DNA of 64,000 bases, taken from assembly GCA_964016885.1 (NCBI GenBank), contig OZ024741.1, positions 385,144,001 through 385,208,000 of the forward strand, read 5' to 3'. Position numbers and translations under genes: made by a program. This DNA is from Eledone cirrhosa. Lineage: Eukaryota. Positions within the stretch are counted from its first letter, which is position 1; each line of letters starts with the position of its first letter. Below, one piece after another: positions 9,606 to 61,357 of the stretch. The notes under the pieces are model-generated. The model saw only the letters and a program-made list of their open reading frames with translations. It did not search any database and was not told where the DNA came from.

Positions 9606-9681
9606 ACAGATTAAAGTTTAAGCAAAGAATCGCTGCTTTCACCCTTAACGGGATCTTCTGAAACTAACAAAGTCAATCTGT
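9606..9681 (-). ncRNA. Type I hammerhead ribozyme-like motif, variant core CAGAAGA
   Basis: Minus strand: AGTTT-CAGAAGA-tCCCgttaaGGGt-GAA-AGCAG..TTGCT-T-AAACT, with distal stem I ACAGATTGA/TTAATCTGT. Confidence 0.65.
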
Positions 9682-10928
9682 AAACGCAGAACTGGATATT
9701 TCAAAAAACGTTGCAACCATTATTTTTGGAAGCCATCTGGATAGTGAATTGTTTATATTATTTTAATAAGTCTTAGTGTTAAGGACAATTAGAAAAAGAC
9801 GGAGAGAAAGAAAAAAGACGGAGAGAGAGAAAAAAGAAAAAGAAAAAAGACGGAGAGAGAGAAAAAAGAAAAAGAAAAAAATGTGGAGAAATATCGGAGA
9901 GAGAGAAATGCATGGAGAAAAAAGAGAGAGATAAATAAAGACAGGAGGAAAGAAAGAAAAAAGGAAGAAATAAGAAAAACAGAGGAAAGCAACAGAGAGA
10001 TATCAAGTCATCAGACAGATAGAAAAACTCAAGAGAGAGAAATAATATATAGAGAGAGGGGGAGATAATGAAAACTTTACGTCATGTCATATTACGTTGA
10101 GTTAACAATTTATATGAAATGAATAATAAAAATATAAATATCAATATTCATGAATGGGACATAAATATATAATATGAGAAATTAAACAGTTTAATAATGA
10201 TTATATGTTTAGTTTAAAACTTGAGATCAATATACTAAAATTTGAGAAACCACTATCTTACGGCAAAGATAGACAAATATATATATATATATATACACGT
10301 CCTGAAAATAGAAATTATGTCTACTCAGGTCTACAATATAGACATACAAAACGCAAATGATTTCTCTTAATCACTGCTATACATTCCTTGTGTTATAAAA
10401 AGTTCACAGTATATATACATAAATATATACGATTAACATTCATGCCTTCATATATACGATTACCATTCATGCATTTAACATTCTGTTAAAATTATGCATA
10501 TCTGCAATAAAAACTGCGTGGGTAGGCATGCACACACATAACTCTCACCCACACACATACATATACATATATATATATATACACATACATATGTATAAAT
10601 AAATATTTGCGTGCGTCTTCACCAATTGTTAGACCCGCATCGCTCATGTACACATACAGACAGATATACAATCATAAAAAAAACATATAACACTTTTATA
10701 TGCATGTTAATACACACATACACATCTGTATAGAGATAATCAAATATCAATATATTACTAAAGGATTATACTTTGGAAATATAATTATAACAATATAAAT
10801 TTAAAATACTAAAGGATTATATTTTGGAAATACAATTATATCAGTATAGTCTAAAGGACAAACGAATTCTAGAGATATCAAAACATTAAATATCTTTAAA
10901 AACACTATAGAGTATCTTAAGTTAAAAT

Positions 10929-11026
10929 AATTGTTTCTACTTTAGGCACAAGGCCAGCAATTACCCAGTGCATTACTGGTACTTTATTTTATCGACCCCA
11001 TAAGGATGAAAGGCAAAGTCAACCTT
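10929..11026 (-). mobile_element. 5'-truncated SINE inserted in the PLE-C 3'UTR
   Basis: Reverse complement of the 3' half of SINEs at 55940/56878; probable TSD ttaa(g/a)ttaaaataat at 10917-10931 and 11025-11039. Confidence 0.8.
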
Positions 11027-11146
11027 AAATTAAAATAATGTTTCATATATTTAGTATAGAAATTTATCCTACGTATATTTTAATCAAGATATTGAAAGGG
11101 TAGACTTATGAAAATTATGAGAAGCTATCAGAATCAAAACAAACCT

Positions 11147-11237
11147 AATAAAAATAAATAAAAATAAATAAAAATAAATAAAAATAAAAATAAAAATAAA
11201 AATAAAAATAAAAATAAAAATAAAAATAAAAATAAAA
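11147..11237. repeat. (AAAAT/AAAAAT)n microsatellite
   Basis: Directly visible. Confidence 0.9.
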
Positions 11238-11520
11238 GTTAAATAAATATATCAATATAATTTAAACATTTTAAAATTTTTAAAAAGTTTTAAAAATTTA
11301 AATATTTAAAAAACCAAGGATTCTACAGATATCCTTATATTTAGTATAGAAATTTATCTTACGTATATTTTATTTAAGACATTGGAAGTATAAACATTTT
11401 AGAGTAGTGTATTATATCTATGTTTATATTTAGTAAGAAAATTTAAAAAGAAAAAGGTGAAGGAATCTAATGATTTATCGACAGGTTTCATATATTAACT
11501 AAATTACTTAATTACTTATA

Positions 11521-11757
11521 CTACATTTTAAATTTATATTTATATTTAAACGTTGAGTTCAATCTATGTCTGCAGCAACTGAATAAATAATTCCTTAAAT
11601 TAAGGGAATTTTTGGACTTTAATATAAAGAATATTTCTTCAATACAAAGATCACAATTTTCTGAAGAGGAATTAAAAGGAGTAGCTTTTGAAATAATATT
11701 CCAAGTCATTGAATATTTAACATTATCTCGTTTAAGGTCCCATAGTAGGCAGATAGT
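11521..11757 (-). pseudogene. PLE-C GIY-YIG endonuclease C-terminal fragment
   Basis: LLWDLKRDNVKYSMTWNIISK..CDLCIEE..CRHR, homologous to ~23738-23965. Confidence 0.8.
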
Positions 11758-11959
11758 TTCCATTTATTAATATCGTATATCTACTCCAAATACTTGTCGA
11801 GTGCTTTATATCAGTTATAAAAATATTTACTCGTTGTATCCGAACAATTTTAAATAGAACTTTTGCATATATATATATATATATATATATATATACACAT
11901 ATACAAATATATATATATATATATATATATATATATATATATATATATATATATATACA

Positions 11960-58160: not shown

Positions 58161-58889
58161 CATTTTCTTTGAGCCATATTGAAGATATAAGAAATAGGGG
58201 AAACCAAAGTTGTTAAGAATAACCTAAAAAAACTCAGAAATAAAGGAAACCAAAATTGTTAGGAATAACCTTACAAAGGAGCTGACACAGAACTGAGGTG
58301 ACTGGCAATTGTAATACAAAAGATCCAGTGACTAGTACAAACACTGCGACACTAAAAGTAAATGTAAGAGACTGGGTACAGTGTTTGGCAATTGAACAAA
58401 CACTATAGAATACTGATACCATGATAAAATACACCCTGTAAACACTGCTGGACTAACCTATAAGCTATAGCTTAGGGCCACTTATAACACTAAATCATCA
58501 AAAATGATATATACATATATATATAATAAAGGAGTGAAGAATAATACGGATCGGCTGTACAATATGGTTTATTTGAATAAACTATACTGTGTTATTCTTC
58601 ACTCCTTTATTATTAATACTCCAGGAATCAGCAACCCGAACACCACAACTAAGTAAACTTCTTGTTGAGTCAAACAACGCTGAACGTTAAAACTATCAAT
58701 ACAGAGTACTCATAACCTCTATTTGGATTGCCTTAAACGATACCTCGTTAACTTAAATATATATATATAATTTATTTTTATCCTTAACATTAATAAAAAA
58801 AATAACTATTTTTTTTAGAGAAGGGCCTCAAATTTCATGTAACTTAGAGCCTCAGCAGGTGAAAGTCTGGCCCTGTCTGTCAAGTAGTA

Positions 58890-59176
58890 GTGCCACGTAA
58901 TTATACACCCAATACACTGTAAGATGATAGGTGTTAAGAAGAGCATCCAGTCACAGAAACTATGATAAATATGAGACATATGAGCAAGATGAGGGTGTTC
59001 TGACCTGCCTGGTCTCTGGACTATGAAACCCAGCCTAACTCATGCTGGCCTGGAAAACTGACATGAAAACAACTGAGGAGGAGGGGGGAGGAGATAATGA
59101 TGATGATGATGATGGTGGTGATGATGGTGATGATGGTGATGGTGATGATGATGATGATGGTGATGATGGTGATGAT
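58890..59176 (+). mobile_element. Old RTE-type 3' end with (GAT/GGT)n tail; related remnants at ~54290 and 59887-60010 (-)
   Basis: ggtgttaagaagagcatccag..ctaactcatgctggcctggaaaactgac resembles the RTE 3'UTR at ~39910-40050. Confidence 0.6.
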
Positions 59177-60092
59177 GAAGAAGGAGGAGGAGAAAGTAAA
59201 AGAATGTGAAGGATAGAAATATAGAAGACAAAAAAAAGCATACAGAAAATGTGTTTATGAAGTAAAAGTGAATGTAAAGGAAGAGAGTATGTGTGAACAT
59301 GGTGGAAATGGATGAATAAAGGTGTTGTGTTCTATGAAAGACAGCCTATATGATGTACAAGGAAATAGTGAGGAATACATTTATTTTGAGAGATTTGGGT
59401 GCATATGTATGTATGTGTGTTGTGTATATATACATATATGTGTGTGTGACTGCAGTGGACCCCACTAGTCATAATATAAATGGCAGGTTTCATCAGAAAA
59501 CCGAGTTCTCTCTCCCCACTTACAGGAAGCTATTTCATTTACTGTCACACACAGTATGTATGTGTGTGTGAATTTATATATGTATGTATATATATATATA
59601 TATACATATCTAGGGAGTGTAGGTATGTCCTTTAGGAAGGAAGTGTTTTCTACTAGCATTCTAAAGGGTCCGTCGAGCTGCCGATTATAGAGTCGGATAA
59701 GATCGATACAGATCGAACCTTGAGCTGATCAGTGGTGAAACGCGCGTCACCTACCAATAAATGTAATGAAGGAGTAACCAATCGTCCTTGTTATCCTTTC
59801 AATATATATATATATATACATATATAAATTCACACACACACACACACATATATATATATATATCTATGTATGTGTGTATGTATACATCACCATCAGCATC
59901 ATGATCGTTTAATGTCCATTTTTCACGCTAGCCGACCACATTTACAGTGTGGGCTGGGTGCTTTTTGTCACGACACCTACACGACCACTTTACAATGTGG
60001 GCTGGATGCGCACACACACACACACACAAATATATATATATATATATATAAAGAATGAATAATAACAGGTAGACATCATAAAAAGGTAATTT

Positions 60093-60215
60093 ATTCCGTG
60101 TGCTTACAAGTGTTTCCACGGTGGTACTGCAGCCTAGTTACGCTACGTGCAAATTCACAAGTACTTGCGAACTCGAATATCCAATGCTGTGACCACTGTT
60201 TCCTCAGAGCAGAAT
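60093..60215 (-). ncRNA. Type I hammerhead ribozyme, long stem II
   Basis: Reverse complement of 61234-61357. Confidence 0.72.
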
Positions 60216-60707
60216 GGTAAATGTACAATGTAAATACCCTTAAGTGGGGTTGTTGGGGAAGATAGAGTGGAACAGGAAGAGAGAAAAGTAGGGAAGAGGG
60301 AGAGAGAAAGAAAGATATGCAGGGGTTGGAGAAGTAGGAGAGAGTGGCTTGTAGATATCTTAATCAAAATGTTATGGTAGGGGTTTTATTATACTGGTTA
60401 CTTTTGGAGAGATGCGTTGATAGTTAAGGTCGGAATTATTTATTGCCCCAGAGGGCAGGTTCATAGATGTTGAGAGGGAGGTAGGTCAAAGGTGAGAGAG
60501 AGAGAGAGTGTAATGGATGTAGAGAGAGATATAGGTAGAGAGGGGACAGACAAAGTATGTGTGGTGAGTGAACTTTGGGTTTGTAGTAGTAATCTAGGAA
60601 TTGCACTGAGTTACCATGTATAGTGATAAGCAGTGTATTGTCTTGTAGTGTGGGGGGAAGAGAAGGTTGTTAGCTAGAAAGTGATGTTATAGTTACGGGT
60701 TCGAATG

Positions 60708-61010
60708 TTAAGTTATTTTATAGTGAGAGAATTTAGCTTTTAGTTTGTGGTTGCAGTATAATGATCGTTCAATTCTATCGTTAAGTAGTTTGTTTTGGGA
60801 TCTTAATATGTAAAATAGCTCAAGGTTACATAACCTGCAGTACTTCAATCCACTCCGATATGCACTTGCGCTGGAAAGTATATCCCATTTTAAGGTGAAC
60901 TGTTGGTTGTGTTCACGGAGTTGCCAAGTCTTGTTGGCGAGCGTGGTCACAAAATGGTGATTCGGATGTTTGATTGAGAATCGATGACGGTACCAGCGAG
61001 ATTTAAACGA
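60708..61010 (-). pseudogene. PLE-D GIY-YIG endonuclease C-terminal fragment
   Basis: SFKSRWYRHRFS..TTLANKTWQL..LKWDIL..CRLCNLE..LLNDR..CNHK. Confidence 0.8.
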
Positions 61011-61233
61011 TAATTCCGACCTTAACTATCAACGCATCTCTCCAAAAGTAACCAGTATAATAAAACCCCTACCATAACATTTTGATTAAGATATCTACAA
61101 GCCACTCTCTCCTACTTCTCCAACCCCTGCATATCTTTCTTTCTCTCTCCCTCTTCCCTACTTTTCTCTCTTCCTTTTCTACTCTATCTTCCCCAACAAC
61201 CCCACTTAAGGGTATTTACATTGTACATTTACC

Positions 61234-61357
61234 ATTCTGCTCTGAGGAAACAGTGGTCACAGCATTGGATATTCGAGTTCTGCAAGTACTTGTGAATTTG
61301 CACGTAGCGTAACTAGGCTGCAGTACCACCGTGGAAACACTTGTAAGCACACGGAAT
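61234..61357 (+). ncRNA. Type I hammerhead ribozyme, long stem II
   Basis: TGCT-CTGAGGA-aACaGTGGT..ACCACcGTg-GAA-ACActTGT-A-AGCA. Confidence 0.72.

Follow-up and report, generated by a model that had tools for sequence, protein, structure and literature searches.

Type I hammerhead motifs of Penelope-like elements and non-coding tandem repeats in a (TA)n-rich stretch of the Eledone cirrhosa genome

What are the hammerhead motifs in 64,000 nucleotides of Eledone cirrhosa DNA (assembly GCA_964016885.1, contig OZ024741.1, forward strand, positions 385,144,001 to 385,208,000; hereafter the window, meaning this whole stretch), and what do they do for the elements that carry them? The contig measures 416 Mb and the genome 3.0 Gb. 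The window consists of eukaryotic repeat DNA; 690 of its 3,199 20-mers are TA-alternating, and between the (TA)n tracts lie pieces of RTE-type long interspersed elements (LINEs), pieces of Penelope-like elements (PLEs) and small repeats. A preliminary description made from the sequence alone had claimed thirteen hammerhead motifs from eight element families. Our reading, to which we give a probability of roughly 0.7, is that these 13 motifs are type I hammerhead folds of four Hydra-clade PLEs and four non-coding tandem repeats, with predicted cutting of their RNA to unit length.

All thirteen motifs are recovered both by reading the sequence and with a relaxed type I descriptor, which gives 13 matches in the window against a mean of 0.05 (maximum 1) in 100 block-wise dinucleotide shuffles, so that shuffled DNA is not matched equally often. 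This descriptor was written after the candidates had been read, and the search was therefore repeated with a widened core (any single change from CUGANGA, plus UUGANAA), giving 14 matches against 0.37 (maximum 3) in shuffles; five of five decoy cores had no match in the window. The fourteenth match (59896, minus strand, core CUGAUGG) has a microsatellite for its stem II and was discarded as chance. The cores start as follows, the positions first reported being the low-coordinate edge of each motif:

9660, 18978, 22102, 46293 and 60207, minus strand: motif core starts
15146, 27140, 27754, 31448, 45156, 48598, 52260 and 61242, plus strand: motif core starts

The type I order (stem I, core, stem II, GAAA, stem III, UH site, stem I) is present in all 13, weakly by energy in families F1 and F8, and self-comparison of the window and searches of the genome agree on the eight families, here F1 to F8. 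Every core previously listed (CUGAUGA, CUGAAGA, CUGAGGA, UUGAUAA, UUGAYGA and CAGAAGA) is present: eight motifs have canonical or U3-A8 cores, three (F4) have U3.G8 and two (F1) have A4. The stem II region spans 13-116 nt, which keeps the lower end of the range first given (~13 to ~100 nt) and extends the upper, and the 10.1-11.1 pair is mismatched in nine of the 13 (U.U, C.A, A.A or A.G), in line with the mismatched first stem II pair described for several. Rfam at gathering thresholds has no match in the window; at E<=1 there is one hammerhead match (31430-31500) among the best 150 of 239 matches, and the Rfam miRNA matches are (TA)n artefacts. Using our own descriptor, no hammerheads permuted to the SGC order are found in the window or in 114 10-kb stretches; other permuted (non-type-I) matches are absent from the window and number six in the 114 stretches, all non-SGC.

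Is the window exceptional? We sampled 94 evenly spaced 10-kb stretches (940 kb) from 23 large contigs and from no small ones, setting aside 20 flanking and 5 targeted stretches. The sample holds 131 matches, against 3-12 across ten shuffles, a net density of 132 motifs per Mb (bootstrap 92-178), from which we estimate a genome total of ~0.4 million motifs (range 0.3-0.5 million, by this looser descriptor); one sampled stretch contributes 14 matches, 11 of them from a single array. A rival reading makes the window a special local niche, or its motifs chance folds in AT-rich DNA. Thirteen motifs do exceed the ~9 expected per 64 kb, but by resampling the probability of at least 13 is 0.20, the flanks hold 17 matches in 200 kb, and shuffles give only 0.05-0.37 per window, which leaves this explanation with hardly any credence. 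The community of autonomous PLEs and ribozyme-bearing parasites proposed for a local (TA)n niche thus stands as a mixture and is instead a genome-wide population. Its estimated size lies far above published densities, as given in the available text of those reports: thousands per genome (Xenopus ~9,000; PMC4209133), and, by stricter descriptors, 126,247 motifs in axolotl and >6,000 in a coral (PMC7229834). Only 23 of the 131 sampled motifs combine the canonical core CUGANGA with a stem II of <=25 nt, and 50 have a stem II of >40 nt; the expectation that standard descriptors would miss many was correct.

Four of the families are carried by PLEs. In the following features, signed positions count from the core start:

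8169..9719, minus strand: F1 PLE copy with ribozyme motif, leader of ~200 nt and open reading frame (ORF; 9473-8271) with an internal in-frame deletion, ended by (TA)n at 8169
9610..9670, minus strand: F1 motif, A4 core CAGAAGA, 13-nt stem II with U.U first pair, 15-nt stem III, predicted cut after 9620 (CUU), putative transcription start at A 9665 in TTAGTT
18909..19168, minus strand: second F1 copy, 5'-truncated, motif at 18928-18988, 3' end at +69 in (TA)n
21905..25815, minus strand: F3 PLE, broken ORF 25815-23836, 3' untranslated region (UTR) of ~1.7 kb
22043-22112, minus strand: F3 motif, CUGAAGA, 31-nt stem II, AUA site
43580..45351, plus strand: F6 PLE 3' UTR, GT-rich, ~3.8 kb in full copies, ending in the motif
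45146-45288, plus strand: F6 motif, CUGAAGA, 104-nt stem II, CGAUCG, GUU site, putative start at A 45149 in TCATT
45908..46300, minus strand: second F6 copy, starting 7 nt before the core, 3' end at +382
46149-46303, minus strand: motif of the second F6 copy, 116-nt stem II
60030..61011, minus strand: F8 PLE 3' end, endonuclease (EN) tail 61025-60711 and 3' UTR
60095-60217, minus strand: F8 motif, CUGAGGA, 84-nt stem II, GUA site
61010..61568, plus strand: inverted F8 partner arm, motif at 61232-61355 with 85-nt stem II, longer 3' tail

These motifs lie within the 3' UTR or pseudo-LTR (long terminal repeat) of PLE ORFs, which stand upstream in other copies found with tblastn, and their 3' flanks are (TA)n. 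Hydra-clade PLEs are characterized by RWK, DKT, a CxCX5C linker, CxxC, CxH and a C-terminal EN, with a preference for (TA)n (PMC8557442, available text). The window copies of F1, F3 and F8 each show part of this set: the F1 ORF, followed by a 3' UTR of ~1 kb, has RW[K/R] (as RWR) and the CxCX5C linker, with the EN end present at another locus (L079), the F3 ORF carries CxCX5C, and the F8 EN tail carries CxxC and CxH. F6 seems non-coding in the window, and elsewhere its long GT-rich 3' UTR follows a Hydra-type ORF (upstream of the motif at loci L241, L244, L242, L163 and L240), with DKT, CxCX5C, CxxC and CxH at L244. Judged by these protein motifs and by visual likeness to published alignments, F1, F3, F6 and F8 are hammerhead motifs of Hydra-clade PLEs.

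As far as the available text and file S2 of Craig et al. (2021, PMC8557442) describe the Hydra EN+ PLEs, they share with these elements the protein motifs, (TA)n targets, a 3'-proximal type I hammerhead, the inverted 5'-truncated arm with a one-sided tail, and the U.U pair; file S2 includes Hydra hammerheads with a U.U first stem II pair, one of them from an octopus (Hydra-1_Obim). They differ in that the published hammerheads have CUGANGA cores with a stem II below ~30 nt, whereas here stem II is 31-116 nt or the core is A4; the published elements are generally <3 kb, whereas F6 has its ~3.8-kb 3' UTR, and their tails are 30-40 nt as against 90-190 here. The minimal metazoan PLE hammerheads of Cervera and de la Pena (2014, PMC4209133) have, in the text available, the U3-A8 pair, an extra nucleotide at the stem II base, palindromic stem III, many heterogeneous families per genome and proposed circular intermediates in common with ours, and differ in having a helix II of 4-8 bp. 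The minimal palindromic, dimer-type motif first cited for PLEs does not describe F1 and F4, with their long non-palindromic stem III, or F8, with a non-palindromic CAAUUG derivative.

The remaining four families are non-coding:

14724..15316, plus strand: F2 unit, 593 nt, non-coding
15136-15235, plus strand: F2 motif, U3-A8 core, 59-nt stem II, palindromic stem III CUACGUAG, GUC site, candidate pseudoknot UGAGGU/ACCUCR
26714..28135, plus strand: F4 unit of 615 nt, non-coding tandem, 2.3 copies
27130-27273 and 27744-27888, plus strand: F4 motifs, U3.G8 core, 77-78-nt stem II, 34-nt stem III, GUC site
52063..52641, plus strand: copy of an F4 sister subfamily, 91% identical, motif at 52250-52394 with UUGAUGA
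31252..31771, plus strand: F5 unit of 467 nt, non-coding, 1.1 copies
31438-31488, plus strand: F5 motif, canonical CUGAUGA, CUAG, GUC
48332..48775, plus strand: F7 unit of 314 nt, non-coding, 1.4 copies
48588-48644, plus strand: F7 motif, U3-A8 core, palindromic 10-nt stem III, GUC site

The longest methionine-initiated ORF in these units is 33-48 aa, there is no PLE protein match, and the units fold as circles with z of -2.7 to -10.6. Copies of F4, F5 and F7 in the window hold 1.1-2.3 units, and longer arrays occur at other loci (F4 with a 615-nt period), F7 reaching about 1.8 units at most. By structure F2, F4, F5 and F7 are non-LTR retrozymes, and they likely borrow the reverse transcriptase-endonuclease of PLEs. 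In the available text of Cervera and de la Pena (2020, PMC7229834) and of Li, Clavereau and Pollet (2026, bioRxiv 10.64898/2026.07.22.740005), retrozymes are likewise non-coding and arranged in tandem, every unit bearing a single type I hammerhead, with low GC, a stable circular fold and a PLE link, and their published lengths (51-972 bp) include those of our four units; the stem II inserts of 59-78 nt in F2 and F4 set these apart. Cephalopods are unmentioned in the main text of either paper. F4 also occurs in sequence runs of three other organisms, mostly with A8.

Ordinary satellites, spread by DNA recombination with the ribozyme as a passenger, could also produce the long near-identical arrays that exist for these families, since such arrays can grow by unequal exchange. 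Their copies are, however, dispersed over many contigs, with 3' ends fixed at (TA)n and variable 5' ends, often head-to-head, and the window copy of F2 has a compensatory change (G-C to C-G) in stem II relative to its family; we consider a satellite origin quite improbable. Two further observations concern F2: TATA-like GATATAAATA stands at 14981-14990, ~160 nt upstream of its core, and several F2 5' ends group near -123. At L273:281-3381, in a separate array, a 310-nt unit with a canonical hammerhead is repeated eleven times.

Are these folds maintained? Covariation is present in the predicted helices of the F4 and F2 groups and at positions 3 and 8. When the latter were left free, 87 of 96 sampled matches paired there, as C-G (68) or U-A (19), and a relative of F6 (L194) has U3-A8 instead and retains a 103-nt stem II. 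Among the seven sequences of the F4 group, 96.9% of core-proximal cells are paired, a level reached by none of 500 shuffles and compared with 16-47% in slid controls; both sides have changed at four of 14 pairs, the covariation score is reached by none of 500 shuffles, and RNAalifold recovers the three-way junction unaided. The long stem II inserts fold as hairpin or branched domains (z of +0.2 to -6.9 for 28 inserts in six groups). Reading by eye gives candidate pseudoknots in three groups, where 4-7 nt on the 5' side of stem I could pair with unpaired bases close to the stem II base (UGAGGU/ACCUCR; GGAA/UUCC vs GARC/GUUC; GGGY/RCCC). These resemble the stem I-II pseudoknots of Perreault et al. 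(2011, PMC3088659), except that the partner here belongs to an internal loop within the long stem II. The group with GGGY/RCCC has a branched stem II of 96-104 nt and is absent from the window (L254:6996, L263:8140, L271:8566 and L215:6745).

The A4 core is the state of the F1 master copies, as 17,572 exact copies have A4 and 178 any other base; F4 divides into 1,175 exact copies with A8 and 394 with G8. The CAGANGA core recurs in strong stems in a second, unrelated family (L340-L359) and in a third, single case (L246:881). That second family has 1,695 search candidates and a ~500-nt tandem in L358, and in both it and F1 the CAG sits in a context like a 3' splice acceptor (TTTCAG, CCTGCAG). 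Published precedents exist for the U3-A8 pair, U4C, palindromic stem III and an additional or mismatched nucleotide at the stem II base; U4A and U3.G8 are not named among the core variants in the available text of PMC3088659. We found no prior report in the available literature of a 55-116-nt stem II with covarying stems, or of an A4 core, a weak negative in that figures and supplements may show such variants.

How, then, would the elements use these folds? Each of the eight families has fixed 3' ends that abut (TA)n 28-260 nt beyond the predicted cut, two per family with one seen for F4 (offsets from core start):

F1 +69/+169; F3 +106/+197; F6 +195/+382; F8 about +162-177 and +326: 3' ends of the PLEs
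F2 +170/+322; F5 +252/+326; F7 +177/+203; F4 +381 only: 3' ends of the non-coding units

Self-cutting of the window motifs is predicted from their folds, and we propose that they would cut the element RNA into unit-length pieces, which would then be circularised and copied into (TA)n. The enzyme would prime at the fixed sites on both sides of a (TA)n break and read through the cut site, and tandem units would arise by rolling round a circle; the long stem II inserts would be folded domains, the candidate pseudoknot to the stem I flank in three groups perhaps stabilising the active fold. Priming at the fixed 3' points and reading back through the ribozyme would imply that the RNA was uncut, or re-ligated, at the cut. 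A two-armed array of a 151-nt unit from the F1 leader, seen at one locus (L330:1202-2385; G000:C2:61196469-61197618), has both arms joined exactly at the predicted F1 cut site, as would be expected if a cleavage product had formed a small circle. Beside this array (L330-L332), three single junctions, two of F1 (L256 and L091) and one of F8 (L106), fit 5' ends at the cleavage site; the idea that 5' ends mark that site was set aside, there being no genome-wide excess.

A hot spot of 5' ends lies elsewhere. Patterns for head-to-head junctions in which both arms end within a 24-nt gap were counted across the whole genome: for F6 the core edge has 1,038 junctions, and the control sites on the 3' side of stem II and upstream have 8 and 2; for F1 the core edge has 1,577 and the upstream control 20. 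Roughly, and by different exact patterns for arms and copies, this amounts to ~2,080 arms beside 7,266 exact copies of F6 and ~3,150 beside 17,572 of F1. Of 30 F6 loci picked by their 3' tail alone, 14 extend beyond the locus edge, and seven of the 16 mapped 5' ends lie between -7 and +12 of the core start. Where F6 copies are truncated close to the core, 16 of 32 keep an exact match as far as -7, with G next in four; AT microhomology makes some of these ambiguous, and many were retrieved with a query starting at -11. The junction ends fall on the A of TCATT (F6, -7) and of TTAGTT (F1, -5), motifs that we take to resemble the initiator consensus. Among 50 junctions listed for each family and read by eye, G precedes AGTTTCAG in 16 for F1 (8 unambiguous, template T) and ATTATTT in 10 for F6 (7 unambiguous, template C). 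Untemplated 5' G in L1 and SVA has been attributed to cap copying (PMC3287187), and Drosophila Penelope has an internal TATA-less promoter (PMC2377424). Since the junctions stop on initiator-like motifs, often with an untemplated G, the first base of stem I is the likely capped start of F1 and F6 transcripts; cDNAs with their priming site in the 5' copy would then run off at the cap. Such a start site is not described in the available text on Hydra elements (PMC8557442).

The same edge could arise from reverse transcriptase stalling at the folded ribozyme, or from microhomology. The hot spot overlaps the near-palindrome TTC(T/A)GAA and AT-rich microhomology, 12 of the 50 F1 junctions listed join exactly at TTC(T/A)GAA, as do several for F6, and a reading without any extra base is possible for eight of 16 F1 and three of 10 F6 junctions with G. 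Against this, arms in two unrelated families end on the A of motifs that recall initiators, the G is unambiguous in the remaining cases, and 14 of 30 F6 copies read >1.1 kb beyond the site. Head-to-head pairs of the F3 type (L048, L077, L078, L112, L117, L130 and L259) have 127-165 nt between their cores, which suggests family-specific stops ~65-85 nt upstream of the core and fits family-specific starts better than a structural block. We judge stalling or microhomology unlikely, with a capped start preferred.

Several results weigh against our overall reading. The number of F4 pairs with changes on both sides is matched by 92 of 500 shuffles, the pseudoknots, as read by eye, covary only in the F4 group and after a one-column shift, for F1 and F8 the fold of lowest energy is something other than a hammerhead (z 0.48, 0.34 and 0.24), there is no covariation within F1, and RNAalifold on the F6 and F8 groups gives no core junction. 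The non-coding units share no demonstrated sequence with any specific PLE. Genome-wide, the predicted F1 cut at +41 shows no excess of 5' breaks, with 167 there, 137 at +37 and 223 at +44, counts that mix true junctions with small deletions.

The A4 motif of F1, F8 and the U3.G8 motif of F4 might accordingly be catalytically dead relics, kept as promoter or enzyme-binding structures and spread without cutting. The poor folding of F1 and F8 and the lack of excess at the F1 cut speak for this, as do the F1 and F6 arms counted above, which were copied from RNA uncut there, the predominance of A8 over G8 in F4, and the Naiad PLEs, which thrive without canonical hammerheads (PMC8557442, available text). 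On the other side, A4-type cores recur in unrelated strong stems, G8 copies have multiplied in a diverged relative as well as in three or more F4 sublineages, the UH site, GAAA and stem III are intact, and the single 151-nt array joins at the F1 cut. Loss of activity in these families seems to us improbable, if worth keeping in mind, and cutting hammerheads remain our preferred reading.

If F1 and F6 do start on stem I, consequences follow for the message. The F1 ATG lies ~200 nt downstream of the putative start, so that a cut at +41 in the 5' copy would remove the mRNA cap. In the 3' copy, stem I can be lengthened by CAGAUUGA (-20 to -13); a transcript that begins at -5 would not include this segment, and its 5' ribozyme copy would have a shorter stem I. 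As the cut would decap the mRNA, slow or conditional ribozymes (A4 core, dimer-dependent forms) would be favoured. We offer tentatively, with the odds somewhat against it, a fuller scheme of a start on stem I, a decapping cut and a complete 3' copy, in which the A4 core, dimer dependence and the pseudoknotted stem II of 55-116 nt would be evolved brakes that divide RNA between translation and circularisation, across some 0.4 million ribozymes.

The window has further features of its own:

4529-7988: 3.46-kb palindrome (98.6%) of a non-Hydra PLE with a GIY-YIG match, whose 3' region (~7806-7860) has a degenerate hammerhead-like remnant (UUGAU, GGGC-GUGA-GCCC, GAAA) that fails the descriptor
36650-39772 and 11960-13864, plus strand: RTE-type LINE with an open 1,040-aa stop-to-stop frame and a PHD-finger match directly after the reverse transcriptase domain
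32184-36349: 98-bp tandem array, part of it 99% uniform, adjoining the full-length RTE upstream

A second RTE family (76% identity) is dispersed through the window, likewise in (TA)n.

New here are the measured genome-wide load, an abundant A4-core family, covariation in long stem II and a controlled 5' hot spot. Because the canonical core, or a stem II of <=25 nt, is missing from 108 of the 131 motifs in the sample, and Rfam finds none in the window, searches must widen, the long-stem and A4 forms extending what they have to allow; this genome offers a large natural collection of variants. What hammerheads do in PLEs has been stated to be unclear (PMC8557442, PMC7761336), and a capped start on stem I, if true, would give them a concrete role and would explain the head-to-head, 5'-truncated arms.

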